From Deinococcales bacterium (lineage in GTDB: Bacteria > Deinococcota > Deinococci > Deinococcales > JAAFIG01): 64,000 nt of DNA. Where the stretch lies: assembly GCA_031414595.1 (NCBI GenBank), contig JANNVX010000018.1:96001-160000 (forward strand), written 5' to 3'. Below, in pieces: positions 1 to 64,000 of the stretch. How positions within the stretch are numbered: position 1 is the first letter of the stretch; each line of letters begins with the position of its first letter. A model generated the notes under the pieces. The model had not been told where the DNA came from. It did no database searches and was given only the letters and a program-made list of their open reading frames with translations. Position numbers and translations under genes: made by a program.

Positions 1-1
1 T

Positions 2-643
2 GTGTTACCGCTTGTCCCGAGCTACTTGGCGGTACTTGGCGGCGGTACAGGAAAAAAACCAATTGTTGGCGCACTGCTTTTTGTACTTGGTTTTACAATC
101 GTCTTTATTTCTTTTGGCGCAGGGGCGAGTGCTTTGGGCAGTTTAATGCGTCAGAACAAGGATTTACTCGGTCAGATTGGTGGGGCGCTGATTATGATTT
201 TTGGGGTAATTTTTTTAATCAAAGACCGTGTACCGTTTTTGAACCAAGAATATCGTGCTGACCTTGGCACAGCTTCTAAGTTTGGGCTGGTGGCATTGGG
301 GGCGGCGTTTGGTGCGGGTTGGACCCCGTGTATTGGACCGATTCTGGGCGTGATTCTAAGCATTGCTGGCTCGAGTGGAAACTTAGGAACTGGGGTTGGG
401 CTGCTTTTTATTTATTCGCTTGGTTTAGCTATTCCGTTTTTGCTGGCAGCATTGGCATGGGATAAAATTGGCTCGAGATTTAAGACTATCGGGCGGTATG
501 TGGGTGTGGTTGAAAAAATTAGTGGGGTATTGCTGATTGTGGCTGGCTTACTACTGGTGACTGGTAATTATGCCGAGCTTGGACGGCAACTCCAAGCCAT
601 CACTCCGACTTGGTTACTCGATTTTGAACGCAGCTTAAAGTAA
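2..643 (+). CDS. ccdA: Cytochrome c biogenesis protein CcdA (DsbD transmembrane domain), 5'-truncated by window edge
   Basis: Hydrophobic ORF with LPLVPSYL following the first (cut-off) Cys and the AFGAGWTPCIGPILG motif; YSLGLAIPFL. Confidence 0.9.
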   Translation: MLPLVPSYLAVLGGGTGKKPIVGALLFVLGFTIVFISFGAGASALGSLMRQNKDLLGQIGGALIMIFGVIFLIKDRVPFLNQEYRADLGTASKFGLVALGAAFGAGWTPCIGPILGVILSIAGSSGNLGTGVGLLFIYSLGLAIPFLLAALAWDKIGSRFKTIGRYVGVVEKISGVLLIVAGLLLVTGNYAELGRQLQAITPTWLLDFERSLK

Positions 644-786
644 TGATGTGGTTTTCAGATTAAAATCATTGATGAAAATTTCAAAAATATTTTTCAATCT
701 TTTATTCATGTTTTACATGATTGCCTGTGCTTTTCTGGTTAAACCGAGAATTCGCTCGGGATAAACTTAATTCAAACAGGAGCAAC

Positions 787-1506
787 ATGAATCTCAAAAG
801 AGCTTTTTTATTAACTGTCACCGCCCTAGGTCTCTCAAGCGCAGCTTTGGCAGATGGCTTTAGTGCCACCTTGGAAGTGCCAATAGTGCCTACTTTTTCG
901 GCTAAACTGGGCTTAAATTACAGCCTTGAAGTCAGCCCGAACCTGTTTATCGGTGGCAGTCTTAACTCAACAATTACGCCCGGTGCGACCAATGTTTTTG
1001 GTTTGACGGCTCGAGTTGGGGCGAAGTACGTGCTGTTGCTCTTAAAAAACAGCACCACTTCAGTCAATGCCTATCTTGGCGCAGGGGTCAATGCTTCGGT
1101 GATACCAGCCCCGTTTACGATTGGATTAGACCTGAATGCGGGTATCAATGCAATCACTGCCATTGGTGGCGGCTTTAAGTTCTATGGTGGGGTTGATGGA
1201 GTCGTTGCCTATGTTTTCACAGGAGGTGCATTTGTGTTTTCGCTTGCGGCTAACGCAGGTGTTTTTTTTGAACCTGTTACCAACCTCGAGTTTCGTTTGC
1301 AAGGCTTGGTCGCTTTGGTTGGTACGGCTGGACTTACGGGCTTTGGATGGGGTGTTGGCAGCAGTTTGTATTATACCATTGTCCCACAATTTAAGGTCGG
1401 TTTAACGGCTGCTTATGGCTCGAGTGGTGCGTTTGTCTTTGGTCTTGGCGCATTATTTGCCGAGAAGCCCGGTACACTTGGAATCGCTGGAAATTACCTC
1501 CCATAA
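787..1506 (+). CDS. Secreted, probable outer-membrane beta-barrel protein
   Basis: AGGAG RBS before ATG 787; signal peptide ending SAALA-D; alternating Gly/hydrophobic beta-strand pattern throughout. Confidence 0.6.
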   Translation: MNLKRAFLLTVTALGLSSAALADGFSATLEVPIVPTFSAKLGLNYSLEVSPNLFIGGSLNSTITPGATNVFGLTARVGAKYVLLLLKNSTTSVNAYLGAGVNASVIPAPFTIGLDLNAGINAITAIGGGFKFYGGVDGVVAYVFTGGAFVFSLAANAGVFFEPVTNLEFRLQGLVALVGTAGLTGFGWGVGSSLYYTIVPQFKVGLTAAYGSSGAFVFGLGALFAEKPGTLGIAGNYLP

Positions 1507-1519
1507 ATTTAAGCCCAAG

Positions 1520-1549
1520 AAAGCGGCGGCTTATGGCTGCTGCTTTTTT
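1520..1549 (+). terminator. Intrinsic terminator
   Basis: AAAGCGGCGGC-TTATG-GCTGCTGCTTTTTT hairpin with T-tract just after stop 1506. Confidence 0.8.
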
Positions 1550-1660
1550 ATGCAGCCAGTTTTGTGACTACAACCTTTTTAAGCTCGAGTGACCCAGCCA
1601 ATAACTTTGAACTTCATGGTTTGCTGGTTTTGAAACTTGGAAATCGGTAAACTAAATCGT

Positions 1661-3322
1661 ATGAACCCACACGATTGGAATTCTGTTGCATCACACTTTG
1701 CTGCTCTCGAGTCTGCCCCATTATCGGCGGCGACCGCCCAAACGTGGTTACAGTCTTGGAGTGATTTAAGCGCCGAGATGACCGAAGCCTATTCTCGAGC
1801 CTACCGTGCCAAAATGGAAAACACGACCGATGCTGCTGCCGAAGCAGTCTATTTGAACTTGGTCGAAAACGTTGTGCCAAATCTTAAAATTGCCGAGAAC
1901 ACCTTGGAAAAACGCTTTGTGGCACTGACCGATTATACCGATGCCCAGACCTTTGAATTTTATAAGCGCACCAAAGCCAGCTTAGCCATTTTTGCTCAAG
2001 CCAATATTGCCTTGTCAGTCGAAGAAAGCAAATACGAAGTTGAATACGATAAACTCATCGGTGACATCAATATCCAAATTCGCGGTCAGGAACTAACACT
2101 GTATGGTGCTTGGGCTAAGTTACTCGAGCCAGACCAAACTTTGCGCCAAGAAGTTTACACCGCACTGATGGCAGCATGGCAAAAAATCCGTCCTCAACTC
2201 GAGAAGATGTTCTTAGAATTGCTGTCTTTACGGCGGCAAATTGCTACAAATGCTGGTTTTGCCAATTACCGAGAATTTATTTGGCAAGCCAAAGCGCGGT
2301 TTGATTACACCCCCGCAGATTGCCTTGAGTTTCACCAAAGCATTAAAAAAATTGTTGTGCCAATCGCTGCCAAAGCCTTTGCCAAACGCCGTCAAACCAT
2401 GCAACTCGAGACACTGCGCCCGTGGGATACATCCGTTGACCCAAGCGGACTCGAGCCGTTGCGACCTTTTGCAAATGTCGGTCAACTGATTGACCAAAGT
2501 TCAAAAATTTTCTCGAGTTTATCCCCAGAATTTGGTGAAATGTTCGACACTATGCGTCAAAAGAACTTGGATTTAGACAGTCGCAAAGGAAAAGGACCCG
2601 GCGGATTCTGCGACTTTTTTAATCAAAGTGGAGAAGCCTATATTTTTATGAATGCAGTTGGTACTCAAGATGATATTCAGACGCTTTTTCACGAAGGCGG
2701 ACATGCTTTTCATGCCTTAGAAAGCCATAAACATCAAAAACTGATTTGGAATTACCACGGACCAATGGAATTTAACGAAGTTGCCAGTATGGGTATGGAA
2801 ATGCTGGCGATGCCATACTTAGAAGCGTCCAAAGGTGGGATGTACACCGCACCAGAAGCCAAACGCGCTCGAGCCGAACACCTTTTTGATGCGGCGGTGG
2901 TGTTCCTGCCATACATGGCGTGTGTGGATGCTTTCCAGCACTGGTTGTATGTGGATGCACCAGATGATGTCAGCATCAGCGCCATCAATGCAAAATGGGC
3001 AGAACTTTACTCGAGTTTCTTACCGCATTTAGATTTTAGTGGTATCGAAGATGGAATGGCATTTCGTTGGCAACGCCAAAGCCATATTTTCACAGCCCCG
3101 TTTTATTACATCGAATACGGCATTGCCCAAGTCGGTGCGTTACAAGTTTGGCAGAATGCCGTTGAAAACGAAGCAGAAGCTGTCCAGAAATACCGCCAAG
3201 CGTTGCAACTGGGCAATACAAAAGGCTTAAAAGAACTGTTTGAAACGGCTGGACTGACATTGCGGTTTGACTCGAGCCACTTAGCGAGTTTAATGCAATT
3301 GGTTGAAGCTGCCCTCGAGTGA
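1661..3322 (+). CDS. M3-family oligoendopeptidase F
   Basis: HEGGH zinc motif, [18 protein letters not shown]; probable leaderless start (TAAACT 7 nt upstream of ATG 1661). Confidence 0.9.
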
Positions 3323-4309
3323 TGCGGGTACTCGAGTGGGTTTCCTAAATTCAATATCCTCTGGTTCGCCACCATCTTCTCGCACAATCAAATTGGGGTT
3401 CTGAGCGCGTAGAAATTCCACAATGCCCCAAACCAAATCGTCTGGTGTGCTGGCGGCACTGGTAATCCCCACGGCTTTCACACCATCGAGCCATTCGCTT
3501 TTGATGTCACTGGCACTGTCCACGCGGTATGCCTCGGCGGTGATTTCTTCAGCTAGTTCGACCAAGCGCATTCCGTTACTTGAAGTCAGGCTCGAAACAA
3601 CCAAGAACAAATCCACTTGTGGGGCAATGATTTTCACGGCTGCCTGACGGTTTTTGGTGGCGTAACACAAGTCGCTTCTCGAGGGGATGGTTAGGTTCGG
3701 AAAGCGTTTTTTGAGAATCTCCACGGTTTTATCGGTGTCATCTACACTTAAAGTTGTTTGGGTTAACACAATGCACTTATTGGGGTCTGGGACTTCTACG
3801 GTCTGTGGGTCTTGCATTTTTTGGTCGGCTTTGCGGTTTCCCACGACGTTGACCAGAATTGTGTTGTCTGGGGCTTCGCCAAATGTTCCAATAATTTCTT
3901 GGTGCTGGCTCGAGTCGCCAATCAGTAAAATGCTGTAACCCATACCAGCATAGCGTTTAGATTCAGAATGCACCTTAGTGACCAATGGACAAGTTGCGTC
4001 CAGTGTGGTCAAACCGCGTTTATTTGCCTCCTCACGCACTTTAGGCGAAATGCCATGAGCGCTAAAGACCACGGTTGTCCCCTGACCGCTCATCCCCTCG
4101 AGTTCGGCTAAATCCTCTACAAAACGCACGTTATGCTCTGCCTCGAGACGATTTACCACTGTTTGATTATGGACAATCGCGTGATAGGCAATGATGTCGC
4201 CTTCGTTACTGGCTTTGTTTTCTAAGGCAGCATCTTTCAGGGCATCAATTGCCATGACCACCCCAGCACAGTAGCCACGCGGACGAGCCAGAATTACAGT
4301 CTCTATCAT
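3290..4309 (-). CDS. ispH: 4-hydroxy-3-methylbut-2-enyl diphosphate reductase
   Basis: [39 protein letters not shown] motifs; start set at MIETVILA. Confidence 0.95.
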
Positions 4310-4367
4310 GATTTTACAATAACGCTTGTGGTTAAGACAGGTGTCTCGAGTGAGCAAATCCAAGCTC

Positions 4368-4431
4368 TTGATTTTTCAAATAAATAGTGCTACATTCTGA
4401 GTTAGTTCACAATCTAAATTAACTAACTCAG
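4368..4431 (+). promoter_or_regulatory. Sigma-70-type promoter followed by ROK-repressor operator
   Basis: TTGATT(4368)-17-TACATT(4391) with TG extension; inverted repeat CTGAGTTAGTT-N13-AACTAACTCAG at 4397-4431, resembling XylR/ROK operators. Confidence 0.7.
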
Positions 4432-4440
4432 GAGACTGGC

Positions 4441-5637
4441 ATGATAGTCAAAGGCGATCCAAGCGCCCTCAGAACCATGAACCGCACTAGCATCTTGCGT
4501 ATTTTGCGGCGGGTTGGACCAATTAGCCGCACTCAACTTGCTGAGCTAACTGGTTTGAGTCCAGCCTCGGTCAGTGGGGTCACAGCCGAACTGATTGCCG
4601 AAAAACTTCTGGTTGAACAAAGTATTGGCGAAGCTGGCTCGAGTGGTGGAAGGCGACCCATTTTTATTAACATTGACTACTCGGCGCACTTTGCGATTGG
4701 CTTAAAACTCTCCGAGCATCGGCTTGAGGCTGTGCTAACCGATTTGTCCTTGAAAGTCCTGACGCATCTTACTGAAGACCTCACCGAACACGACCCAATT
4801 CGAGTCACAATGCAAATAGCCGCCCTTTGTAAAAAACTGTATAAACGGGCGAAGGTTTCACCCGACGACCTGATTGGCATTGGCATTGGGCTTTCGGGTG
4901 TCATAGATGCAGTGAATGGTATTGCTGTTCATGCGCCGTTGTTGGGTTGGAAGCAGATAAAAATAGCCGAGATGGTCAGTCAAAAAACCAATTTACCAAG
5001 CTGGATAGACAATGATGTCAATTCTTTTGCGGCGGCTGAACGGCTTTTTGGTCATGCTAAACACGCCAATAGTTTTATTGCTGTCGCCATCGGGCGTGGT
5101 CTTGGTGCAGCCATCATTTGCAACGGCGAAATTCACCGTGGGCGCGATGGTGGGGCTGGCGAATTTGGGCATAATAAAATTCTGCTTAACGGACGGACTT
5201 GTAGTTGTGGCAGACAAGGTTGTTTGGAAGCCTACACCACCGAACCAGCGCTTTTGGGACTTTTTCTTGAACGTTTCCCAGAACACCGAGGAATAAGCAT
5301 TCCAGATTTGGTACAACTGGCAAACGCACAACACCAAGGCGCAATTTCTGTACTCGAGACGGCGGGGGCTTTACTAGGGCAGCATATTTCTTATTTGGTC
5401 AATGCCTTTAACCCAGAACTGATTGTCTTTGGTGGCGAAGGTGCAGAACTCGGCGATGCCTTTTTTGAACCGATGCGCCAAAGTCTGCGTAGTCTAGCCT
5501 TCGATGGTCTAGCGACTGAATTACCCTTAATTGTTGTGCCGTGGGCAAATGATGACTTTACACCGTGGGCGCAAGGTGCTGCTAGTTTAGCAGTCCAACA
5601 CGCATTTGATACAGGAGTGCTACTCAAAAACGCCTAG
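4441..5637 (+). CDS. ROK family transcriptional repressor
   Basis: N-terminal HTH (ISRTQLAELTGLSPASVS), DNDVN, GEFGH, CSCGRQGCLE. Confidence 0.93.
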   Translation: MIVKGDPSALRTMNRTSILRILRRVGPISRTQLAELTGLSPASVSGVTAELIAEKLLVEQSIGEAGSSGGRRPIFINIDYSAHFAIGLKLSEHRLEAVLTDLSLKVLTHLTEDLTEHDPIRVTMQIAALCKKLYKRAKVSPDDLIGIGIGLSGVIDAVNGIAVHAPLLGWKQIKIAEMVSQKTNLPSWIDNDVNSFAAAERLFGHAKHANSFIAVAIGRGLGAAIICNGEIHRGRDGGAGEFGHNKILLNGRTCSCGRQGCLEAYTTEPALLGLFLERFPEHRGISIPDLVQLANAQHQGAISVLETAGALLGQHISYLVNAFNPELIVFGGEGAELGDAFFEPMRQSLRSLAFDGLATELPLIVVPWANDDFTPWAQGAASLAVQHAFDTGVLLKNA

Positions 5638-5741
5638 ACCTTAAGACTCAAAACCGATTCTCGAGTACGAACCGTATCGTAACTCGCTTTAGAAAATACG
5701 CCCCGAAACCCTTCGCCCTCATTCTATTAGGAGACTCAATC

Positions 5742-7007: not shown

Positions 7008-7017
7008 ACCGAACCTA

Positions 7018-7041
7018 GGGCGGTGTCAAAGCCGCCCATTT
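7018..7041 (+). terminator. Intercistronic stem-loop (mRNA stabiliser or partial terminator)
   Basis: GGGCGGT-GTCAAA-GCCGCCC-ATTT directly after the SBP stop. Confidence 0.5.
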
Positions 7042-7063
7042 ATGCTCGAGAACGGAGGTTGTC

Positions 7064-16640: not shown

Positions 16641-18040
<1,400 letters not shown>

Positions 18041-18844: not shown

Positions 18845-18938
18845 CGCACCCAAAAATTAAATTTTTCACACTCGAGCCACAAAGTAGGTTAGATAGGTTG
18901 TTTTGCTTGGGTGTGCCTACCATGTTACCTTAGCAGCC

Positions 18939-36196: not shown

Positions 36197-38488
36197 TCAT
36201 TCAAGTAAATCGGTTAATTGCCGAGGGTTGACATCAATCCGTACCCGCACACCACCTTCACGGTAGCTTCTAGCAGGTTCTAGCAGTTGGGTTAGGCGTT
36301 CTCGAGTATCAGCCCGTACAAGTAACTGATAAACAAAAAGCCCTTTGACTCGAGCAATTCCAGCCGGCGCAGGACCAAGCAGTTCTAAACTAACTGCGCC
36401 TCGGTCACGGATTAAGCCACCCAGTTTACTCGAGGCAATTTCGGCATCCCCAACCCGACGGGCAGAAACTTGAATCTGTGCCATTTGTGCAAAAGGCGGG
36501 TACAAAAAGGCTTGGCGGCTCTCGAGTTCACTCTTTGCAAAACTGCTGGAATCTTCAGAATTTTGAATTTGTTGAATAGCTTTATGTTGCCCATCAAAGG
36601 TTTGAATCAACAGTAACGGCGCTCGAGTCGGATGCCATTCTAAGAGTTGCCGCAAGAGCAAATGGAAGCGTTCACCCGCCCTAAAATCGGGACTCGAGTG
36701 CATTGTATCGGCAAAGGAAATAGCGATTAAAGCTAAGTTTGGCGGTGGCGGCAAGCCCAACACAGCCGTTGTACCAACAACAATTCCACTTTCGCCAGCG
36801 TAAATAGGAGTTAAGTCATCTTTGAATTCGCGGTCAAAACGAAACAGGTTGGTTTGCGGTAAAAAACCACGTAACTCACGGACAATCCATTCACTGCCAG
36901 GTCCTTTTGGGGACAGCACTGTCCCTTCACAATTGGGACAACGGGTTGGCGGAACGGTGCTGTAGCCACACTGATGACACTCGAGGGTTCGAGCCGCCGC
37001 ATGGAATTTAAGGGCGACATCACAATGCGGGCAGTACGGAATCCAAGCGCAGTCTTTGCAACGCAGCATCGCGCTGTAGCCACGGCGCGGCGCAATGATC
37101 ACAGCTTGACGACCTCGTTCAGCAATTTGGCGCAGCACCCGTTTTAAGTCAGTGGAAATCGGAAATGAATCCCGAGCAATTGGCATATTCGACATTGGTC
37201 CGGTCTCTGGGGCTTTTGGGGCGGCATTAAAATCCACGACATGGATTCGAGCCGTGGGTGGCGGTAAAACTACCCCGTCTAAGTCAAGGCTTTCGGTGGC
37301 GGGTACACTGCCAACAAATAAAACTCGAGCCTTGGCATGTTTGGCGCGGGTTAAAACTGCATCTGGGATAAAAACCCGAGAGCCACCATGAAGTTTCCAA
37401 GCATCGGATAATTCATCCTCGAGAATAATTAAAGCCAAATCTGGGAGTGGCGCAAACAACGCCATTGGCGTTCCAAACAAAATCGGGATTGTTCCAGTGG
37501 CGCAAAAGCGCCAAACCGCTTCGCGTTCCAGTGGACGCAAAGCCCCGTGCAGCATGGCACTTTTTGCCAGTTCGCCAAGTGCCTTGTATGCCCGCTCGAG
37601 TCGTACATGGTCTGGTGCGAGATACAGCACACAATGCCCATTTTTGACGGCTTTGAGGATTAAGGATTGTAAGACCGCGAAACGCTCACGGGGTTTTGCT
37701 CCATGTAAACGCGCAGTAGCCAATCCCTCGAGTTTTTGTGCTGCCGCCAGATGCACCGCTTTGACAATTGGTCGCTCAAAAGATTGCCCAAAATTCGGCA
37801 TGGTCAGAGGTAACGGCTCGAGTTCGCGCCTTGCCGCACCCTTCTCGAGTAACTTCGAGACCATGCTCGGGCTGACCCCAGCCTCCAGTCCCCAAGCCTT
37901 CAAGGTGTAAAAACCACCCGCTTCGCGCAGTACCTCGAGGGCTGCCGTTTGTTTATCGGTCAGGGGCAGGTCTGCGTTGGTGGCTTGAATAATTTCACGG
38001 CTTGGCAATTCTAAGCGCACATCCTCGAGTAACAAACCCTGTCCACGTAAAAAATCTAAGATACTTGGGTCAAGGGCTGTTGCATTTTGGCGCTGCTCGA
38101 GTAGTCGTGCTTGTTCTGGCAGGGTTTCTAAGTTTATTCCAGCCACCAATTGTACACGGTGACTAAAATTTGGCTCGAGACCAAAGGGCATAAAATCTTG
38201 ATAGACCAAACCATCAAAACTTAGGCTTTGTTGTGCCACAGCTAGAAGGGCAGCGCAAGCATCGGGCGTAAAAATTGGTTCAGTGTCCAGAACTGCAATC
38301 GTGTCTTTGATGCTTGTGGCACGGTCTAACGTGCCGTCTAAGACTGCTAGTACCACCCCGACCCTCGAGCCACCCTGCCACGGCACAAGCACCCGCTTAC
38401 CAAGACCAAGGTGCGGTTTGCCAATGGGTTGGAAATCATAGGCTGGAAGTGGCAATGCCACAGCCACGCGCCAACGAGGGTACTTCAT
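36197..38488 (-). CDS. priA: Primosomal protein N' with degenerate helicase motifs
   Basis: RVLVPW 3'-binding domain, RRGYS + four CxxC, PDFRAGER, YPPF, LGPAPA, IDVNP. Confidence 0.92.
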   Translation of the reverse strand: MKYPRWRVAVALPLPAYDFQPIGKPHLGLGKRVLVPWQGGSRVGVVLAVLDGTLDRATSIKDTIAVLDTEPIFTPDACAALLAVAQQSLSFDGLVYQDFMPFGLEPNFSHRVQLVAGINLETLPEQARLLEQRQNATALDPSILDFLRGQGLLLEDVRLELPSREIIQATNADLPLTDKQTAALEVLREAGGFYTLKAWGLEAGVSPSMVSKLLEKGAARRELEPLPLTMPNFGQSFERPIVKAVHLAAAQKLEGLATARLHGAKPRERFAVLQSLILKAVKNGHCVLYLAPDHVRLERAYKALGELAKSAMLHGALRPLEREAVWRFCATGTIPILFGTPMALFAPLPDLALIILEDELSDAWKLHGGSRVFIPDAVLTRAKHAKARVLFVGSVPATESLDLDGVVLPPPTARIHVVDFNAAPKAPETGPMSNMPIARDSFPISTDLKRVLRQIAERGRQAVIIAPRRGYSAMLRCKDCAWIPYCPHCDVALKFHAAARTLECHQCGYSTVPPTRCPNCEGTVLSPKGPGSEWIVRELRGFLPQTNLFRFDREFKDDLTPIYAGESGIVVGTTAVLGLPPPPNLALIAISFADTMHSSPDFRAGERFHLLLRQLLEWHPTRAPLLLIQTFDGQHKAIQQIQNSEDSSSFAKSELESRQAFLYPPFAQMAQIQVSARRVGDAEIASSKLGGLIRDRGAVSLELLGPAPAGIARVKGLFVYQLLVRADTRERLTQLLEPARSYREGGVRVRIDVNPRQLTDLLE

Positions 38489-48020: not shown

Positions 48021-48230
48021 TATTGAAAGCTGTTCAGGACGGCGCTAATTGTTGTTACGGCTCGAGACTGATTGAGAAAGCACAAGATTTTTCTTGGTGT
48101 TTCGCGGCAGCTTTAGCTGGGGACTCGATAAATTGCAGTGCATTGGTCAGTGTCTCGAGCCTAAAACTTCTAAACTCTGGTCGTCTGGCACTTGACAGGC
48201 TTGGTATACCACTGATACTCTCTAACCAAG

Positions 48231-48338: not shown

Positions 48339-48395
48339 CACTCGAGAGAATAGTAAAAGTTAAAAGAAATTTTAAAAGTTCCACAGGAGAAAATC

Positions 48396-50116: not shown

Positions 50117-50142
50117 GGGCGAACACAGAGGTTCGCCCCTAC
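50117..50142 (-). repeat. GTAG-type REP element
   Basis: Reverse complement GTAGGGGCGAACCTCTGTGTTCGCCC; 1-nt insertion relative to the other copies. Confidence 0.85.
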
Positions 50143-50171
50143 GAAAATTGACAATGTACAGGAGAGACCAA

Positions 50172-50723: not shown

Positions 50724-50752
50724 GCCCTCATTCAATTCCCGCAGGAGGTTTT

Positions 50753-51348: not shown

Positions 51349-51358
51349 GAAGAGATTT

Positions 51359-53129: not shown

Positions 53130-53155
53130 AATTTATTCTACTTGAAAAGCCAATT

Positions 53156-53856: not shown

Positions 53857-53872
53857 GATTCACCTCTAAAAA

Positions 53873-54351: not shown

Positions 54352-54354
54352 AAC

Positions 54355-56120: not shown

Positions 56121-56125
56121 AAACC

Positions 56126-57421
56126 CTACTTAATCAATGGCTCGAGGGCGGACTGCATATCGGTCAGTGCTTTATCTACGGTTTTAGAACCAGCCACGAC
56201 CGCATTGACATTGGTGCGGATAATTTCAGAAACCTTCGGATAATTGGCGGTCACGGGGCGTGGACGGGCTTTTAAGATAACAGGGTAGAGGTCATCGTAG
56301 TGTGGATTGGCTCTCAGGACATTGTTGTTGTTGTACAGCGCTTTACGCACCGGTAAGAAACCACCTTTGATGCTGAATTCTTCTTGGGCTTTGGTGTCAG
56401 ACATATAACGCAGCAATTCAAAGGCTTTTTGCTTGTTCTTGCTAAAATTCGAGATACCCCATGAAGCCCCACCTTGGCAGGTGCTGCTGCCGACTTTTGA
56501 ACCCGCAAAGGCGGGCAAACGAGCCACACCAATGTTGCCTTTGACGGCTGTTGGTCCGGAAGTTGGTCCGCCGTTGCCTTGGAAATGCGCCCAAGCATAT
56601 GCCCAGTTCAAACCGAACAAGACATTGCCTTGCTGCATCATGCGACGGCTGTCATCGGTGCGAACTTCTGCCATTAGGGCTGGCGAAATCTTGGTTTTGT
56701 TGATTGAATCTACCCAGAGGTTCAGGGCTTTTTTGCCAAAGTCATTATTGACATTGACCTTACCACCCTGCAAGAAATCGCCGCCAGCTGCCCAGAATGG
56801 TTGCAAGAACATACAAACCGCGCCTTCAATCGGTGCGCCTTGGAAATTCAAGCCTTGGAGGTTTGGATTACCTTCGGCTGCCAAAATCTTTTGTGCAGTT
56901 GCGGTAACTTCTTCCCAAGTTTTAGGCACAGCCACTTTGTACTTCTCGAGTAGGTCTTTACGGTAATACAAGAACTGTACATCGGTGGTGGCAGGCAATG
57001 CCCAGAGTTCAGTGCCAATGGTCGTGGCTTTGACCGGACCCGGAACGTAACCGTCAATAAATTCTTGGCGGTCTTTATCGCCACCAAAGTATTTATCGAG
57101 TGGCTCGAGCCAACCTTGGGCTTGGAATTGGGCTGGACGAATCACATCAATCAGCATCACATCCAAACTTGGGTCTTTTGCGCCTAGCACGGTAGATAAA
57201 TACGCGCCTTGTAACTCTGAGGTTGCACCACCAAGCTCGAGAACCACTTTAGTACCGGTCTTCTTTTCAAAGCGGTCAAAAATCGGTTGTAGCAAATCTG
57301 GACGAAAGGTTGAACCCGCAAAAACCCGTAAGGTACTACTCTGAGCGCCAACTTGTGAGAGTGCCAATGCACCAACTGCCAAGCCAATACCACCAAACAT
57401 AACCAATGTTTTTAACTTCAT
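56126..57421 (-). CDS. Sugar ABC substrate-binding protein (trehalose/maltose-like)
   Basis: AGGAG RBS before ATG 57421, signal peptide, LYYRKDLL, PKTWEE, NWAYAW, RPRP...Y. Confidence 0.88.
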   Translation of the reverse strand: MKLKTLVMFGGIGLAVGALALSQVGAQSSTLRVFAGSTFRPDLLQPIFDRFEKKTGTKVVLELGGATSELQGAYLSTVLGAKDPSLDVMLIDVIRPAQFQAQGWLEPLDKYFGGDKDRQEFIDGYVPGPVKATTIGTELWALPATTDVQFLYYRKDLLEKYKVAVPKTWEEVTATAQKILAAEGNPNLQGLNFQGAPIEGAVCMFLQPFWAAGGDFLQGGKVNVNNDFGKKALNLWVDSINKTKISPALMAEVRTDDSRRMMQQGNVLFGLNWAYAWAHFQGNGGPTSGPTAVKGNIGVARLPAFAGSKVGSSTCQGGASWGISNFSKNKQKAFELLRYMSDTKAQEEFSIKGGFLPVRKALYNNNNVLRANPHYDDLYPVILKARPRPVTANYPKVSEIIRTNVNAVVAGSKTVDKALTDMQSALEPLIK

Positions 57422-57485
57422 GAGACTCCTCCTAAACTTTTTGAACTCAGTCAATATACAGCACCGAACCCAACTTGAGAAGCAC

Positions 57486-58052: not shown

Positions 58053-58067
58053 AGCCTCGAGTATAGG

Positions 58068-59504
58068 CTATGGGAGGGTGATACTGATGTATTTCAGTTC
58101 AAGAAACGCCTCGAGACCCCAACGCCCACCTTCGCGTCCGACCCCCGAGTTTTTCATACCACCAAATGGGGCTTGAGGTGCCATCGCACTTGGCACACCA
58201 TCATTAACGCCAACAATGCCGTACTCGAGGGCTTCGGCGACACGGTACGCCCTGCCAATGTCTCGAGTCCAAATGTATGCCGCTAAGCCGTACTCGGTGT
58301 TGTTTGCCCAAGCTACTGCATCGGTTTCGCTTGAGAAATTTACAAGCGGAGCAACCGGACCAAAGGTTTCTTCGGTCAGAATCCGCATTGATGGCGTGAC
58401 ACCAGACAAAATTGTTGGTTCAAAGAAAAGCCCGCCAGTCGCATGACCACCCGTGACGATTTTAGCGCCTTTCGCTACAGCATCCTGAACGTGTGCCTGT
58501 ACCTTCTCGAGTGTCGCCTTATCCACCAGTGGACCAATGGTTGTGTCGGCATCAAGCGGATTACCCAGCTTAAAACTCTTGGCTTGGGCTGCAAAAGCCT
58601 CTTCAAAACTCGAGGAGAGTGTTTCGTGGACATAGACTCGATTGGAGGCTACGCATTGCTGCCCAGCGTTCCTAAACTTAGAATTAGAAACGGTGAGCGC
58701 GGCTGCCACGACATCGGCATCTTCAAAAACAATAAATGGTGCATGACCGCCCAACTCGAGCGACAAGCGTTTAAGGGTCGGTGCAGCTTGGGCGTAAAGC
58801 AACTTGCCGACTTCGGTACTACCCGTAAACGTAATCTTGCGAACTCGAGCGTCCGACATAAAAACTCGAGAAACTTCTATCGGGTCTTGGCAGGGCAGTA
58901 CCTGAAAAGTATCTTTTGGCGCACCAGCTTCGAGCCAGAGCTTGGCGAGTAACAAGGCGGTCAGGGGCGATTGTTCGGCGGGTTTTAAGACCACCACACA
59001 TCCAGCCGCCAGTGCAGGCGCGACTTTACGGGCAATCATTGCCGCAGGAAAATTCCACGGAGTCACGGCGTACACAACTCCAACAGGTTCGGGTCTCGAG
59101 AAGGCGCGTTTTTGGGCAAAACGACTTGGAATAATTTCCCCAGCGATGCGTTCAGCTTCGGCGGCGTACCACTCGATGGCGGTGGCGCTGTAAATACTCT
59201 CGCCCCTCGACTCGAGCATTGGCTTACCCATCTCCAAGGTCATGGCAGTGGCAATTTCTTCGGCATTGGCACGAATTAATGCTGCCCATTTTTGCATGAT
59301 GATACTGCGCTCGAATCCAGAAGTGTGCTTAAAACTCGAGAAAGCCGTGACTGCTGCCTCGAGTGCTTCTTTGGCTTCGGGGATGCCACAATCGGCAATT
59401 TCGGCGACGGTGCTGCCGTCAAAAGGATTGATGACCGAGAAAGTTTTGTCTAGGGTTTGCCAACCACCAGCGAGAAGGGCTTGACGGGCAACAGTTTGAT
59501 ACAT
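58068..59504 (-). CDS. gabD: NAD(P)-dependent succinate-semialdehyde dehydrogenase
   Basis: TPWNFP, ITFTGS, LELGGHAP, KFRNAGQQC, EETFGP, APFGG. Confidence 0.92.
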   Translation of the reverse strand: MYQTVARQALLAGGWQTLDKTFSVINPFDGSTVAEIADCGIPEAKEALEAAVTAFSSFKHTSGFERSIIMQKWAALIRANAEEIATAMTLEMGKPMLESRGESIYSATAIEWYAAEAERIAGEIIPSRFAQKRAFSRPEPVGVVYAVTPWNFPAAMIARKVAPALAAGCVVVLKPAEQSPLTALLLAKLWLEAGAPKDTFQVLPCQDPIEVSRVFMSDARVRKITFTGSTEVGKLLYAQAAPTLKRLSLELGGHAPFIVFEDADVVAAALTVSNSKFRNAGQQCVASNRVYVHETLSSSFEEAFAAQAKSFKLGNPLDADTTIGPLVDKATLEKVQAHVQDAVAKGAKIVTGGHATGGLFFEPTILSGVTPSMRILTEETFGPVAPLVNFSSETDAVAWANNTEYGLAAYIWTRDIGRAYRVAEALEYGIVGVNDGVPSAMAPQAPFGGMKNSGVGREGGRWGLEAFLELKYISITLP

Positions 59505-59546
59505 AGAAAACTCCTTGGAAGAAATTTGGGATTATGTTATCTCACA

Positions 59547-59571
59547 GGGCGAACACAAGGTTCGCCCCTAC
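59547..59571 (-). repeat. GTAG-type REP element
   Basis: Reverse complement GTAGGGGCGAACCTTGTGTTCGCCC; its TAG is the stop codon of ORF 59568-59882. Confidence 0.85.
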
Positions 59572-59882
59572 GGATTTAGGGGTGGATTTGCGTTTAAGTA
59601 TTTTGTGATGATTGGTTCAGATTCTTTCCAGACAAATTCGAGAGGCTTAAGTGCTTCTTTGAGTGCATGAGCCTGTTGTTGCAAAATCAATTTATCTTGT
59701 TCCCAATAAATACCCAATTTGACATTGGAAAAATTACGAATTAAATCTGGAAGGTTATGGGCATGGTTGGCAGTCAATTGTGCAACTTTGAGATTGTCGC
59801 AGTAACGAATAAAAATCGTAGTTGCATACAAGATTTCTAACACTATGTTCTCAATTTCTCGAGGGCAAGTTTTTGTCTGCAT
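59568..59882 (-). CDS. Hypothetical protein (104 aa)
   Basis: AGGA RBS; AT-rich; contains HAHNLP. Confidence 0.6.
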   Translation of the reverse strand: MQTKTCPREIENIVLEILYATTIFIRYCDNLKVAQLTANHAHNLPDLIRNFSNVKLGIYWEQDKLILQQQAHALKEALKPLEFVWKESEPIITKYLNANPPLNP

Positions 59883-59905
59883 ACCAGTTCCTAAACTTAA
59901 ACAAA

Positions 59906-60079
59906 TTAGTTCAGTCCAAAGCGCTCACGCAATTGCTCAAGCGTCAATGTAACACTCAAACCAGCTTTAGATTGAGCGATTGACTGCTCTAAACGCTTTA
60001 GATTAGCCTCGCCAAAGTTACCGACAAAATCATGAGCAGGCTTGATGCTTTTTTTTCGTTTAGGACTTACTTTCGGCAT
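59906..60079 (-). CDS. 57-aa protein resembling the C-terminal part of YefM/Phd antitoxins
   Basis: GAGG RBS; ...EANLKRLEQSIAQSKAG...TLEQLRERFGLN; below the ORF-track cutoff. Confidence 0.55.
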   Translation of the reverse strand: MPKVSPKRKKSIKPAHDFVGNFGEANLKRLEQSIAQSKAGLSVTLTLEQLRERFGLN

Positions 60080-60087
60080 TGAATCCT

Positions 60088-60471
60088 CTACTCGTCTCGA
60101 GACTTGTCGGGTAATTTGCCACCAAAAGATATAACCTGCCGAATCTTTCCGAACTTATCAAACTCCACCACATCCATGCCTTCGGATTCCATGCGGTTCT
60201 GGTCTTGTAACCATAATCCCCAACCGTAACGCACCCAAAGCCCATGTTCGTGTTTTTGAAAACCACTGGTAAACTCGAGGCGGTCAAAAGCCACGCTGCT
60301 GTGGACTTTGGCAATAAATTTGGCAATCACGACTGCGCCACTCATATGGGCAAGTGGGTCAAAGAGTTGTATCCCCGGATGAACGACACTGGCAAGTTTC
60401 TCGAGGCGAATGCTTGAATCGCGGGCGTTCCAGGCTTCTAAATAGGTTTGTAAACTGGCTTCAAAACTCAT
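60088..60471 (-). CDS. SnoaL/NTF2-like protein
   Basis: YLEAWN, FDP, G.DVVEFD..GKI..V..F; ATGA coupling. Confidence 0.8.
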   Translation of the reverse strand: MSFEASLQTYLEAWNARDSSIRLEKLASVVHPGIQLFDPLAHMSGAVVIAKFIAKVHSSVAFDRLEFTSGFQKHEHGLWVRYGWGLWLQDQNRMESEGMDVVEFDKFGKIRQVISFGGKLPDKSRDE

Positions 60472-61967
60472 AATTGTATCCCTCCAACCCAAGTGCTTTC
60501 GAGATTCCACTCGAGAACGGGGGTGTTGCTGTTGGCGTAAATGTTAAAATCGGCGTACTGACCAACTTCTAGTGTACCACGATTGTTTTGGTCATTACTC
60601 GAAATTGCGCCATTCAAAGTGAAGGCTTCGATACTTTCTTCAAGTGTGACTTGATTGCCAGTTCTAAAAGGCTCGAGGGTGGCGGCGTGAATGCCCACCA
60701 AAGGACTGACTTCTTTGACTACAGGCGCATCACTCGAGAAGACCGTGGTTAGTCCAGCCTCCATCATGGCACGAAGGTTATAACAATGCGTTGCAAAGGC
60801 TTTTGGTAGGTATTTGGCAAAGTTTCCAGCCAGTTCATGCAGAAAAATTGGTTGTGGTACAACAATCACATCAAGTGCCTTGGCTCTAGCCAAATGGGTT
60901 GGGTTTGCCAATCCAAAGTGTTCGATTCTATGTCGAATGCTTGGATGAGGGGATTTTGCCAGTCGTTCGTACACCGTTAAAATCTGGTCAAGCGCAACAT
61001 CACCAATTGCGTGCGTGCCAATCCGAAAACCGTTTTGGTGTGCCTCGAGTGCCAGTTGGTACAATTCCTCGGTCTCAAAACGCAGTACCCCATGACTTGG
61101 AGTATCGGTGTTTTGGTAGGGGAGACTGACCGCAGCCGTCGCACCACTTAAGCCACCATCGGCAAAGAATTTAACACTGTCCACCCGCAGGAAACCCGAG
61201 ACGAATTTCTCGGGTAGCGGATAGGTCTGGTTTCCGCCATCTGGACGACGAATAAACAGCAGATTGACCCGAATTGGTAGCGCATTTTCTGATTCGAGTT
61301 GACGGTATGCCTCGAGCAGCGTTGGGTCAACCGCAGGGTCGGTGCAACTGGTGATGCCGTGCTGAGCAAGCCAATCTAAACCCGCCAGAATAAATTTTTT
61401 GCAATCCTGTACGCTAAAAGCGGGCATGGCTTTTAAGACTAAGCCGTGGGCGGTTTCAAAAAGCATTCCATTCTCGAAATGAATTTCACCGCCGTGTGGC
61501 ACGGGCGTAGCAGCATCAATCCCTGCCAAATTCATTGCCCTCGAGTTGACGGCGTGAATATGAGCGCAAGTTCGGGTCAGCACTACAGGATTATGCGGCG
61601 CAACCGTATCCAGTACAGTTTTATTGGGGCTACCACTCAGCTTGGCTTCGTTCCAACCACGCCCGAGTAACCACTGCCCAGCCTCAAGGGTACTAACTCG
61701 AGAACGCACCAAGTCGTACACTTCCTCGAGTGTGCTTGCATCACGTAAATCCAGCATTGAGGTGCGAAGATGCCCAACTTTCCAAACGTGGACATGGGCA
61801 TCGTTCCAACCGGGATAGATTGCCAAACCGCCTAAATCTATGGTTTCTCGAGCTTCGAGGTTTGGATTATCCAGCGCCACAATTTTCCCGTCTTGAATGC
61901 CTAGGCTGGTAGCAGTTTGCCCTCGAGTTACCCAAATTTTTGCATTGATGAACATTAAGTCAATCAT
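60468..61967 (-). CDS. Amidohydrolase family 3 (YtcJ-like)
   Basis: PGWNDAHVH, GRGW, KFFADG, THAIGD, RIEH, SSDAP; AAGGAGG RBS. Confidence 0.92.
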   Translation of the reverse strand: MIDLMFINAKIWVTRGQTATSLGIQDGKIVALDNPNLEARETIDLGGLAIYPGWNDAHVHVWKVGHLRTSMLDLRDASTLEEVYDLVRSRVSTLEAGQWLLGRGWNEAKLSGSPNKTVLDTVAPHNPVVLTRTCAHIHAVNSRAMNLAGIDAATPVPHGGEIHFENGMLFETAHGLVLKAMPAFSVQDCKKFILAGLDWLAQHGITSCTDPAVDPTLLEAYRQLESENALPIRVNLLFIRRPDGGNQTYPLPEKFVSGFLRVDSVKFFADGGLSGATAAVSLPYQNTDTPSHGVLRFETEELYQLALEAHQNGFRIGTHAIGDVALDQILTVYERLAKSPHPSIRHRIEHFGLANPTHLARAKALDVIVVPQPIFLHELAGNFAKYLPKAFATHCYNLRAMMEAGLTTVFSSDAPVVKEVSPLVGIHAATLEPFRTGNQVTLEESIEAFTLNGAISSNDQNNRGTLEVGQYADFNIYANSNTPVLEWNLESTWVGGIQL

Positions 61968-61994
61968 TGACAACCTCCTTAAAAGTGCTATAGT
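61967..61994 (+). promoter_or_regulatory. Promoter for the DUF3800-associated small RNA
   Basis: TTGACA(61967)-16-TATAGT(61989) with TGn extension. Confidence 0.7.
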
Positions 61995-62000
61995 GATTTT

Positions 62001-62097
62001 TAGAAATGGCTCGCAGCCTGAAAAGTGACCGGATGGTCGCCTGCCGAAAGGATAGGAACGAGTCGCAAAAGAACCTCATAATAGGGGTTCTTTTTTT
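62001..62097 (+). ncRNA. Structured small RNA convergent on the DUF3800 gene (DUF3800-RNA-motif-like)
   Basis: Nested stems, GAAA tetraloop and terminator GAACCTC-ATAATA-GGGGTTC-T7; G-U pairs favour the + strand. Confidence 0.75.
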
Positions 62098-62690
62098 AAT
62101 TCTTTGAGCGTAATTTTTGACCGAAGAATTTCTAAGAGTTTTTCAGAATCTTCTCCTCGTTTTTGGCGATGGACAGCACCTGCAATAAAGTCTGCGAGTT
62201 GTAGTAATTCTGTCCTTGTTGAATCTACAAAAGTAAGGTCGGCAATTTCAGCGGCTAGTGTTTGACGAATATAAGACTTAAATAACCTCTTAAATTGACG
62301 ATTATGCGTTCCATCTAAGCGAAAACGAGCTTTGGAAAAATCATTCTGAAAAACCAAGAGTGCTTGAGCAATCATCCACTGATAAGCATCAATACCATTT
62401 TGAGAGAAAAAACTTAATTCGAGGCTCGTTTTATCAATAGTGAATACTCGAGCTTCAAAATCAAGTGTTGAAATAAACTGAGCCAGATTCAAACGGCGAG
62501 AATTGTTCATTTTGCTAAACTTAAATTCATCACGTTGACCTAGAGATTTTTGAAAATCTGCCAGCGCAATTGCGACAGATGTGGCTCGTTCATCATTGGC
62601 AAAAATCACCATTGCAACGACAAAATACCGACTCGAGTTCTGCTCGAACTTAAAACCCGCATCACCACTTTCGTCTACAAAAACCAGCAT
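62076..62690 (-). CDS. DUF3800 domain protein (acidic motifs, RNase H-like fold predicted)
   Basis: VFVDESGD, EFKFS, DS...LLQLADFIAG. Confidence 0.88.
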   Translation of the reverse strand: MLVFVDESGDAGFKFEQNSSRYFVVAMVIFANDERATSVAIALADFQKSLGQRDEFKFSKMNNSRRLNLAQFISTLDFEARVFTIDKTSLELSFFSQNGIDAYQWMIAQALLVFQNDFSKARFRLDGTHNRQFKRLFKSYIRQTLAAEIADLTFVDSTRTELLQLADFIAGAVHRQKRGEDSEKLLEILRSKITLKELKKEPLL

Positions 62691-62692
62691 AC

Positions 62693-63358
62693 TTACCACA
62701 TCACCGCTTTATTGCGCCAAACAATCAGAATGCCGTAATTGGCACAACTGGCATCCTCGAGATAGTCTGGAATCACCCCATGAATTCTGTAACCGCGTTT
62801 AAGTTGAATACTCAGCACAGGGTCAAAGCGCTCACCACGAATGACTTGATGGAGGTATTCCTCTATCGGCATCTCGAGTTTCACCGCGCCGTAACCCTTT
62901 GGCATTGCCCCAGCGTAATGCCCATGCAGTCCAAGCCGTACCACAAGGTCTTGACGGGCTTTATAGAGCAAACTCGAGAGTCCTTGACTGCGATACTCGG
63001 GCAGCACCCCAATGTCTGCCCCGTACAACCAATGGGCGGTGCTGTCATGGGTGGTAAAAAATCCTTCACCCACGGCTGGAAAGAACTTATGCTGATAATG
63101 ATTAAAGTCCAACTCGAGCATGATGTCACTCGAGCTTGCCACCACTTTATTGTCGAGCGTGTCCAGCACCACATGCTGCCCATCTGGAAAAATTTTGATG
63201 TGCGAAGCAAAATGATGTGCCGACATGATGTCTGCTTCGGCAAGCTCAGGAAAAGAAACCCGTTGAATGTTCTCGAGGGCGTGGGTCATGTCTATAGTGC
63301 TATTGACGACGACATAACGCCCGTCAGAACTCGAGACCAGCGCTGGAAGATTGGTCAT
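62693..63358 (-). CDS. GNAT-family acetyltransferase
   Basis: IGVLPEYRSQGLS..LY acetyl-CoA motif, FDPVLSIQL..G. Confidence 0.85.
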   Translation of the reverse strand: MTNLPALVSSSDGRYVVVNSTIDMTHALENIQRVSFPELAEADIMSAHHFASHIKIFPDGQHVVLDTLDNKVVASSSDIMLELDFNHYQHKFFPAVGEGFFTTHDSTAHWLYGADIGVLPEYRSQGLSSLLYKARQDLVVRLGLHGHYAGAMPKGYGAVKLEMPIEEYLHQVIRGERFDPVLSIQLKRGYRIHGVIPDYLEDASCANYGILIVWRNKAVMW

Positions 63359-63373
63359 AAATTACCCCAAATT

Positions 63374-63444
63374 AACCGTAGGGGCAAGGCATGCCTTGCC
63401 CTTATTGTGATGTGGTGGGTTAGGTAAGCCCAACCCCTACGGTT
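63374..63444. repeat. Inverted pair of GTAG-type REPs (REPIN-like)
   Basis: AACCGTAGGGGCAAGGCATGCCTTGCCC ... GGGTTAGGTAAGCCCAACCCCTACGGTT. Confidence 0.8.
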
Positions 63445-64000
63445 TACGCATTTACAAGTTCTTTGGCTTTATGAACCGCATAAGCCGCACGAATTGCCCC
63501 TTGCACCACGCTTAGGGCTTCGTGCAGCATGGCAGGGTCAATATCAAGTTGAGGCAAGAACCGAATGCAGTTGCTGTACAAACCGGCTCTGAGCAGTATC
63601 ACACCACCCTCGAGACAACGCTTGGCAACATCGGGGACAAGTTCGAGCCAAGGTTCTTTACTTACTTGGTCTTTGACAAATTCCACCACCATCATCCCGC
63701 CGATACCACGCACATCGCCAACACAGGGTAACTCGAGCATCATCGGTTCAAACATCTGGCGCACGGTCTTTTCGATATGGGCTGCGCCAGCTTGTAAATC
63801 AGAGCTTTGGAGTAATTCCAGTGCCTCGAGCGCCGCGACACAGGCTAACGGGTTACCGCCGTAAGTGCTGCCGACCCCACCAATATGAGCGCTGTCCATG
63901 ATTTCGGCTCGAGCCGTGATTGCACTTAAGGGCAGTCCAGCCGCAAGGCTTTTGGCACTGATAATTATGTCTGGAATGACATTGCTATGTTCAATTGCCC
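63444..64000 (-). CDS. gabT: Class III aminotransferase, 4-aminobutyrate transaminase-like (5' part outside window)
   Basis: SAKSLAAGLPLSA PLP lysine, STYGGNPLAC, DVRGIG, AGLYSNCIRFLP; gabD downstream. Confidence 0.8.
   Translation of the reverse strand, partial: AIEHSNVIPDIIISAKSLAAGLPLSAITARAEIMDSAHIGGVGSTYGGNPLACVAALEALELLQSSDLQAGAAHIEKTVRQMFEPMMLELPCVGDVRGIGGMMVVEFVKDQVSKEPWLELVPDVAKRCLEGGVILLRAGLYSNCIRFLPQLDIDPAMLHEALSVVQGAIRAAYAVHKAKELVNA

Follow-up and report, generated by a model that had tools for sequence, protein, structure and literature searches.

The closest described counterpart of the element reported here is HIP1 (GCGATCGC), the highly iterated palindrome (HIP) of cyanobacteria, which to our knowledge has gone unexplained for three decades and has been recorded only in those organisms. 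Repeated words are also found in the Pasteurellaceae and the Neisseriaceae, whose uptake signal sequences (USS) and DNA uptake sequences (DUS), respectively, are asymmetric, 9-12 bp long, present about once per kb and often paired in terminators. The uptake bias of USS and DUS has been shown experimentally, and such words can accumulate by drive without benefit to the cell. In E. coli, the repair bias of Vsr acting with Dcm (CCWGG) raises a methylated palindrome and lowers its deamination product, the effect being less than two-fold. The present work concerns the hexamer CTCGAG in a 64-kb stretch of the genome of a Deinococcales bacterium (positions 96001-160000 of contig 18, G000:C18:96001-160000, hereafter the window; the genome, G000, comprises 4.49 Mb in 120 contigs), which a sequence-only reading had proposed to behave as a HIP-like word. 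For HIP1 itself, a cognate methylase is reported wherever the palindrome is abundant (Elhai 2015, PMC4390886). The available text of Xu, Lawrence and Durand (2018, PMC5861425) describes HIP1 sites as conserved beyond the surrounding sequence and periodic at 10-90 kb, argues that their retention reflects selection and a role in the nucleoid, and finds no role in RNA or peptide. More recently HIP1 has been proposed to be an uptake recognition sequence which raises transformation in a way that depends on methylation (Rodriguez-Cruz et al. 2026, PMC13756078).

The window holds 337 copies of CTCGAG (5.3/kb), about 24 times the number predicted from base composition. The word ranks first among all hexamers of the window by about three-fold, and each of the five hexamers that follow overlaps with it. 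The whole genome contains 23,235 sites (5.18/kb) against 972 expected from base composition (23.9-fold) and 534 expected from a first-order Markov model; CTCGAG again ranks first, the next six hexamers all overlapping it, and its observed/expected ratio (O/E) stays at 20-25 over local GC contents of 0.38-0.54. A maximal-order Markov null gave an O/E of only 1.16 and was dropped as uninformative, because the pentamers CTCGA and TCGAG occur almost solely within CTCGAG.

The core tetramer is not enriched in its own right. Of 33,474 TCGA in the genome, 23,235 lie within CTCGAG, while the other palindromic contexts ATCGAT, GTCGAC and TTCGAA number 89, 26 and 29, respectively, and the remaining 12 NTCGAN words have 59-1,421 copies each. 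Outside CTCGAG the O/E of TCGA is about 0.6 by our arithmetic from these genome counts. TCGA is depleted in other contexts and the enriched unit is therefore the whole hexamer; the sequence-only reading had named an enrichment of TCGA irrespective of its flanks as what would overturn its proposal, and the counts are the reverse of this. The ten bases on either side of the sites are close to background composition with no flanking consensus genome-wide, and CTCGAG is a bare 6-bp word and not the centre of a longer palindrome. It thus exceeds the excess of at least about 15-fold over genome-wide expectation that marks a short palindrome as HIP-like, and occurs in all frames and between genes with no longer repeat around it. 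CTCGAG is a genuine highly iterated palindrome.

Open reading frames (ORFs) were called crudely, as the longest non-overlapping frames of at least 100 codons, and the 3,885 calls cover 89% of the genome. The density of CTCGAG is 5.13/kb within these ORFs and 5.37/kb between them, and within them it occupies all three reading frames (12,213 sites in frame 0, 4,021 in frame 1 and 4,302 in frame 2). When synonymous codons were shuffled within genes, which keeps the protein sequence and the codon usage of each gene, only 1,973-2,040 sites remained (five replicates) of the 20,601 observed, a ten-fold difference, and shuffling the order of codons left 882-932. A strict codon-pair-preserving shuffle was not used, because frame-0 sites would survive it by construction, and the Leu-Glu context was compared directly in its place. 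This dipeptide is spelled CTCGAG in 12,245 of 20,432 cases (60%) against 1.6% predicted from the use of CTC and GAG outside it. The corresponding odds relative to the context expectation are about 93:1, which by our arithmetic, under a mutation-selection-drift reading, amounts to a scaled advantage of about 4.5 per site. Moreover Leu-Glu is the most over-represented dipeptide of the genome (O/E 2.23, compared with 0.98 for Glu-Leu). Among the positions at which CTCGAG is synonymously available, occupancy is 60% for Leu-Glu, 47% for [SPTA]-Arg-[VADEG] and 37% for x-Ser-[SR]. Given the outcome of the synonymous shuffle, the equal density in spacers and the excess of Leu-Glu, the pressure for CTCGAG acts on DNA and has altered proteins: it is independent of coding and overrides both codon choice and amino-acid sequence. 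The sequence-only reading was therefore right that codon or dipeptide bias fails to explain the word, and the excess, whose disappearance under a codon-pair-preserving shuffle it had offered as a refutation, persisted under the synonymous one.

The lineage that carries the word is not cyanobacterial, the closest PriA relatives coming from records titled Deinococcales or Deinococcota, several of them differently named, and the priA orthologue loci of related genomes carry 4-8 CTCGAG/kb. Within the family, whose 19 genomes fall into five genera, every genome has 4.3-6.8 sites/kb, at genus GC contents ranging from 0.45 to 0.62. For three of the other genera of this family, samples of 20-40 kb gave an O/E of 12.7-22.4 for CTCGAG and of 2.15-2.56 for Leu-Glu, and Leu-Glu was spelled CTCGAG 4.5-13.8 times as often as its context predicts. 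A mapping across the Deinococcota, which had been suggested from the window alone, was carried out on 201 genomes at least 90% complete and gave values outside the family from strong avoidance to about 3.6/kb. The word is avoided in genus g7 (83 species), at 0.01-0.25/kb or 26-1,010 copies in genomes of 1.9-6.1 Mb, and one genome of the same avoiding family reaches 3.6/kb. One genus of 30 species has about 0.7-1.2/kb, close to the figure for the reversed word, and three further genera of its family have 1.4-3.5/kb; in another Deinococcota family several genomes have 2-2.6/kb. In small samples from outside the family a context-specific excess of CTCGAG was found in five genomes (2.3-4.6-fold) and in none of four others. 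The trait peaks in this family and is graded across the phylum. An avoidance kept over the 83 species of genus g7 is unusual for strain-level restriction. In a sample of another genome (L334, G022:C1:1-20000) all 20 TCGA lay within CTCGAG, though CTCGAG itself was only mildly above expectation. A literature search, with supplements left out, found no published report of CTCGAG abundance in Deinococcota, none pairing CTCGAG with the term highly iterated palindrome, and nothing on Thermus or Meiothermus that was evidently about the abundance of this word.

Orthologous DNA (14-32 kb from each of seven congeners) was aligned to the window, with frame-matched hexamers as controls. In congeners of 93%, 91% and 89% identity CTCGAG was kept at 142 of 164, 154 of 173 and 108 of 135 positions, compared with 71%, 62% and 54% of the controls. 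In those of 80-75% identity it was kept at 119 of 154, 102 of 143, 87 of 126 and 48 of 82 positions, compared with 28%, 25%, 22% and 17%. Overall, 59-89% of the sites and 17-71% of the control hexamers are retained, a conservation like that of HIP sites, and in the congeners of 77-80% identity the word is kept about three times as often as the controls. The same is seen between genes, where 16 of 20, 8 of 10 and 7 of 9 sites were retained, the controls reaching 28%, 35% and 22%. Of 362 sites inferred to be ancestral, 34 had disappeared along four short branches, whereas rates matched to the base change and the codon position predict 97.2 losses. The pressure protects existing CTCGAG sites. With this retention at orthologous places added to the hyper-abundance, the presence in all frames and in spacers, the lack of a flanking consensus and the lineage-wide distribution, the HIP-like behaviour proposed from the window is borne out.

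Particular positions are not singled out. Where a conserved Leu-Glu is written CTCGAG in this genome, distant congeners also carry the word in 81-89% of cases, and where it is written otherwise here they still carry it in 49-67%, so the pressure is a global one. Of 36 site differences with the closest genome 24 are single-base changes; a multi-base "writing" of the word was rejected, the differences being mostly of the single-base kind that point substitution at 7% divergence predicts. Relative to the average, divergence is 1.41-fold in the flanks of apparent gains (n=16, P=0.006 compared with kept sites) and 1.13-fold in those of losses (n=26, not significant), which is weakly consistent with, and at most a hint of, import by recombination.

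The analysis of site placement over the 120 contigs covered spacings of at most 1.2 kb and counts in bins of at most 5 kb. The spacing has a mean of 191 bp and a median of 138 bp genome-wide. The correlation between pairs of sites rises from 0.36 (7-12 bp) through 0.56 (13-18 bp) and about 0.85 (19-60 bp) to 1.0, a level attained at about 67 bp and held as far as 1.2 kb; the variance/mean of the counts per 1-kb bin is 1.01. A spacing of 6 bp, which would create GAGCTC, was never seen, GAGCTC itself having 6 copies in the genome. Occupancy of Leu-Glu climbs from 27% when the nearest other site is at 7-12 bp to 69% when it is at 100-290 bp, that of the frame-1 class from 27% to about 60% and that of the frame-2 class from 17% to about 52%, and it drops again only beyond about 385-577 bp, within site-poor islands. 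As the occupancy of synonymously available positions also climbs with distance, the short-range hole is not an artefact of protein constraint, and regional heterogeneity would bias this comparison the opposite way. General avoidance of hairpins was rejected as its cause, inverted hexamer pairs of the same G+C content being depleted only at 7-12 bp (0.62) and at or above baseline from 13 bp. Helical phasing was likewise rejected, as there is no peak at 10-11 bp; a marginal peak near 9 bp, whose height the maximum of a jitter null reached once in 100 runs, probably reflects a codon harmonic. A neighbouring site at less than about 65 bp weakens the pressure for CTCGAG, and placement is otherwise random.

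DNA without the word is rare. Only 15 CTCGAG-free gaps of at least 1.8 kb exist, all of them at a GC content of 0.32-0.44, and 5-kb windows with at most 1.2 sites/kb amount to 25 kb in all (0.56% of the genome). Four of the islands were annotated. The first is a surface-polysaccharide island (L347 9959-14294, G000:C46) with a flippase, a family-2 glycosyltransferase, an acetyltransferase and an unknown gene, lacking CTCGAG over 4.9 kb and flanked on both sides by genes of normal density. The second, a low-GC island free of CTCGAG or poor in it, holds a clostripain-family peptidase and a neighbouring gene (L348 1383-3703, G000:C30). The third is a toxin-immunity island (L350 2328-4256, G000:C14) of four small genes that come after a PT-HINT toxin gene; of these four genes the first carries a SUKH immunity domain. 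In the fourth island a DDE transposase adjoins the gene of a 1,499-residue sacsin/NOV_C protein (L349 2439-6938, G000:C18:74439-78938). These four are classic horizontally exchanged cassettes with sharp edges and the site-free DNA is imported low-GC DNA; imported DNA therefore lacks CTCGAG and gains it slowly. Sporadic restriction-modification genes carry 4-9 sites/kb, which suggests that an accessory gene pool circulates among CTCGAG-using genomes. The density of the word in methylase genes was tried as a clock to tell resident from mobile genes and does not discriminate, nearly all having 2-9/kb. No viral contig among the 131 loci listed combined a family-like density with 45-52% GC. One complete virus (L229/G033, IMG/VR, 46,320 bp with direct terminal repeats) has 78 CTCGAG (1.7/kb) and no GAGCTC; it has about 49% GC in the 4 kb sampled, and tblastn gave no protein link to this genome.

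Behind these properties is a word-specific and directional pressure at the level of DNA, roughly equal on every position where CTCGAG can be written. In what we consider its most likely form, a protein would recognise the duplex word, whose palindromic form would suit a homodimer, and the pressure would be a molecular drive rather than selection, CTCGAG-bearing alleles being passed on preferentially. The step at which this happens may be DNA uptake or homologous recombination between kin, with the word as a "self" tag similar to USS and DUS; this guess is put first by analogy with the current proposal for HIP1 (PMC13756078), and a word-directed correction of heteroduplexes would be the second. 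Transmission bias is favoured over a selected function because the strength per site is uniform at 23,000 copies, where a selected function would show diminishing returns, and a reader acting on a stretch of DNA is favoured over a per-site mutation bias because of the local interference, which fits a reader working at the level of a fragment or footprint and does not fit independent mutation bias at each site. The pressure is common to the family and absent from recently imported DNA. Drive by a CTCGAG-reading protein is in our view the best explanation, although a tentative one in which we place somewhat less than even confidence. A more specific version, in which CTCGAG is a methylation-independent kin tag read by a protein conserved in several Deinococcota lineages and biasing uptake, recombination or retention, seems rather unlikely. 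If it held, CTCGAG would be the densest self-recognition word known, and the abundant (up to 6.8/kb), neutral and avoided (83 species) states would reflect a phylum-wide code of kin and non-kin DNA and not strain-level restriction.

Several observations weigh against a drive of this kind. No CTCGAG reader protein was identified, and plain selection for a function as binding sites accounts just as well for the retention and the effects on amino acids. The orthologue comparison that had been suggested from the window, for substitutions creating the word, showed no excess, 2 of 90 one-off precursors having become CTCGAG against 2.02 expected in a small sample with conservative ascertainment. Recurrent gain at fixed places was considered and rejected: 11 of 16 apparent gains match a distant congener, no more than ordinary private single-nucleotide differences (54-66%). 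The difference in flank divergence between gains and losses is not significant (P=0.13). Foreign site-free cassettes did get into the genome, and as genome bins are partly based on k-mers, word-free contigs may be left out of them, which would inflate the apparent homogeneity. The stretch itself was met in four sequencing runs of one study, in the form of contigs and possibly as its own source. Uptake of kilobase fragments predicts interference over kilobases, and the interference observed stops at around 65 bp, a weak tail extending to about 150 bp. In form CTCGAG does not resemble the asymmetric words of 9-12 bp that are USS and DUS, being of 6 bp, symmetric, without flanking consensus and present at 5.2/kb. 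The competence channel ComEC (PF03772) was found in 18 of 19 family genomes. The other Deinococcales searched, among them lineages in which the word is avoided or neutral, had it as well in 12 of 12 cases, so the distribution of competence is not that of the trait; the presence of ComEC is necessary for an uptake reading and does not discriminate.

The main alternative on the side of repair follows Elhai's model of HIP1. A methylase specific for CTCGAG or TCGA would mark the word and mismatch or very-short-patch repair would restore it, correcting near-cognate heteroduplexes towards the word and thus both creating and protecting it. The loss rate of about one third of background is what such restoring repair would give, and for HIPs in general the report of a cognate methylase wherever they are abundant (PMC4390886) speaks for it. 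Profile searches with the five main Pfam families of DNA methyltransferases returned many matches in this genome (5 to PF00145, 9 to PF01555, 10 to PF02384, 9 to PF07669, overlapping those of PF02384, and 1 to PF02086); their specificity is not predictable from sequence here, and folds beyond the five families lie outside the search. Six paralogues with the Vsr-like fold DUF559 (G000:C41:9739-10092 and five other places) could also supply a repair activity of this kind. Nevertheless, in a comparison of six genomes covering the five genera (this one, one of each other genus and a distant congener), no methylase orthologue group at 40% identity or more in all-against-all BLAST spanned more than three genomes. 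G010, which is 91% complete, has no PF00145 (C5 methylase) match, and G013, a single contig, has seven matches to the five families and none to PF01555. The two gamma methylases of TaqI type in the present genome, which belong to the class of the known TCGA enzyme, were considered as the cognate enzyme and rejected as too sporadic (3 of 18 and 2 of 18 other family genomes).

The enzymes that would be expected alongside were likewise searched for in the family. Vsr was found in 0 of 19 genomes, the same model matching G029 and control genomes, and the XhoI nuclease family PF04555 in 0 of 19, the same model matching G021 (E 9e-45), a genome outside the family. In G021 an XhoI-family nuclease is convergent with a PF01555 methylase (L345, G021:C1:73699-77256; ORFs 1198-2136 on the plus strand and 2073-3095 on the minus strand), and that genome contains 3,937 CTCGAG (1.7/kb, about five times composition), so the word is not avoided there. 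Its XhoI-linked methylase was tried as a probe and rejected, giving motif-level similarity only, and no close homologue, in this genome and in the methylase loci fetched from five other family genomes. Among the mutational neighbours of CTCGAG, the three transition neighbours have an O/E of 1.07-1.23 and the transversion neighbours 0.17-0.69; the deamination neighbours CTTGAG/CTCAAG (1.07) are not depleted and there is no methyl-cytosine footprint. In addition, repair at each site does not predict interference below 65 bp. Methylation-linked repair is therefore improbable in our judgement, and the link to a methyltransferase that the sequence-only reading had drawn from HIP1 is not supported by the searches made here. 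As far as these profile searches reach, no conserved canonical methylase, no nuclease of XhoI type and no Vsr appears to accompany CTCGAG, and unrelated enzymes of the same specificity are possible.

The word could also be a selected binding site of an abundant chromosome-organising or DNA-processing protein, its density being kept up for the nucleoid, segregation, access of repair or a similar function. The retention in genes and spacers, an argument also used for HIP1 (PMC5861425), and the equal density in coding and non-coding DNA agree with this, and the strong hole below about 20 bp would fit the footprint of a protein as the palindrome would fit a dimer. Less compatible are the Poisson-like placement beyond 67 bp, with neither regular spacing nor phasing at 10-11 bp, and the filling in relatives of 49-67% of the positions that are empty here, by which particular sites do not matter. 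A uniform advantage at 23,000 copies and at the price of thousands of amino-acid changes is moreover hard to square with diminishing returns, and we consider a selected binding function doubtful.

A function in RNA would have CUCGAG act in every transcript, of either strand, as a site for an RNase, an RNA-binding protein, a modification or pairing. With 89% of the genome coding by our ORF calls, most copies are transcribed, and among close pairs of sites at 10-14 and 20-26 bp up to 36% are intergenic compared with 11.6% overall, which fits some use as hairpins. This function seems very unlikely all the same, as spacers are equal to genes in density and conservation and the sites avoid each other at hairpin-forming distances, and no RNA or peptide role is found for HIP1 in the available text of PMC5861425. 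More ordinary explanations, whether a preference for codons or dipeptides, a repeat or mobile element dispersed in the genome, a self-protected restriction site or an assembly artefact, can be practically discounted, for although CTC and GAG are preferred codons in high-GC relatives and explain part of the 2-8-fold excess in other families, the word is ten-fold above the synonymous shuffle, lies in all frames and in spacers between flanks near background, recurs in 19 of 19 family assemblies and in priA relatives from several differently named records, and has no XhoI nuclease in any of the 19 genomes, restriction normally depleting its site as is seen here for most other palindromes.

In the window, where the largest site-free stretch is of about 800 bp (56141 to 56945), the M3 peptidase gene (1637-3322, plus strand; PF01432, E 1.8e-50) contains the word in all three frames, at 1706 (frame 0), 1794 (frame 1) and 2512 (frame 2). 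The sequence-only reading had the frames right and the third coordinate one base too high, at 2513. Its hand counts, 18 starts in 1-3340 and 18 in priA, were exact. The priA gene (36197-38488, minus strand), with the domains PriA_C, PriA_3primeBD and Zn_ribbon_PriA, thus carries 7.9 sites/kb. Of the intergenic sites that had been listed, six lie between ORF calls: 1584-1589, an isolated hexamer without extended palindrome; 5660-5665; 18026-18031, flanked by the two G+C-rich arms of an inverted repeat that resembles a terminator (sequence read directly); 18871-18876; 48061-48066; and 48341-48346, directly after a G-rich run followed by a T run (terminator-like). The seventh, at 4345, falls within the longest lytB ORF call (3290-4363, TTG start), and whether it is intergenic hinges on the true start. 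The window also encodes a putative Uma2 nuclease (PF05685; 57486-58052, minus strand), one of 24 matches in this genome. The 19 family genomes all have 6-40 matches, G019 has 33, one other family has 3-16 and two others 0-1, and among 14 control genomes only a cyanobacterium, Thermus and Deinococcus gave any. This expansion does not follow the density of CTCGAG; it was considered as a partner of the word and rejected, there being 10-16 matches in two genomes without context-specific excess and none in three with a 5-8-fold excess.

Most other palindromic hexamers are nearly missing, 26 of 64 having no copy in the window. Genome-wide GGGCCC has 0 copies, TGCGCA 2 and CGATCG 3, GGCC occurs 152 times in 4.49 Mb (O/E 0.009) and GATC has an O/E of 0.14. 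In all five family genomes sampled the other 63 palindromes have an O/E of 0.34-0.55, the sets that are fully missing differing by genome. Of GAGCTC, in which the half-words of CTCGAG swap places, 16 of the 19 family genomes have 0-25 copies; the exceptions have 114, 161 and 568, the last being G010, the genome with no C5 methylase match. Several methylase genes of the present genome adjoin nucleases (TdeIII, NgoPII, NgoBV, ScaI and a split BglI/SfiI-like gene), and such recognisable pairs fit the extreme avoidance of most other palindromes. The BglI/SfiI-like nuclease is split into two ORFs (L020, G000:C5; 559-1005 and 1022-1462) and adjoins a methylase fragment bearing a stop codon (C5:7847-8050), so it is a decayed restriction system. 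At L041 (G000:C1) a D12-class adenine methylase (1297-2268) overlaps a MutH-family gene (2253-2876); given the O/E of GATC, the arrangement has the appearance of a restriction pair for GATC rather than of methyl-directed mismatch repair. In G016 a DUF559-related copy lies within a long open frame that also holds a TaqI-like methylase (L073).

The pressure described here rewrites proteins, Leu-Glu being about twice as frequent as expected, and this matters for codon models, for the binning of metagenomes and for taxonomic assignment. The CTCGAG content of a gene is also a marker of how long it has resided in these genomes. The gradient inside one phylum (avoided, neutral, 2-3.6/kb and 4-7/kb) permits a comparative test that is hard to make within cyanobacteria, of which genes go along with the density of the word, and several complete or near-complete genomes of other genera have 2-3.6 sites/kb; if cultured strains are among them, experiments could address the question. 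Moreover the case appears to separate iterated palindromes from a conserved methyltransferase, and if it does so this argues against methylation as their general cause.

Compared with known systems, CTCGAG shares with E. coli Vsr/Dcm at most a word-specific bias. The excess is 24-fold, there is no Vsr in the 19 genomes, at least one of them has no C5 methylase match and the deamination neighbour is not depleted. XhoI/PaeR7I restriction-modification systems also recognise CTCGAG, and the XhoI-family nuclease and PF01555 methylase of G021 are found outside the family; restriction predicts avoidance, whereas in the family the word is enriched and the nuclease family is missing. Like USS and DUS, CTCGAG is hyper-abundant in the genes and spacers of a whole family, shapes peptide content and is sparse in recent imports, the differences in form being those given above. 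The closest likeness is to HIP1 and the alternate HIPs of cyanobacteria, which are also short G+C-rich palindromes with counts tens of times the expected number, lying in every frame and in spacers, without a longer repeat, kept at orthologous places and common to a large clade with exceptions inside the phylum. CTCGAG differs in having six letters instead of eight and in belonging to another phylum, in its density (about 5,200 copies per Mb, against the 300-2,700 per Mb given for HIP1 in PMC4390886) and in having no nested core that is enriched alone. Furthermore, no conserved cognate methylase was found for it in six genomes with five Pfam families, and sister lineages of the same phylum avoid it. 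Relative to HIP1 it is thus a new word in a new phylum, at a higher density, without a nested core and with no conserved methylase found, and it constitutes a second, independent and denser case of an iterated palindrome beyond that of cyanobacteria.

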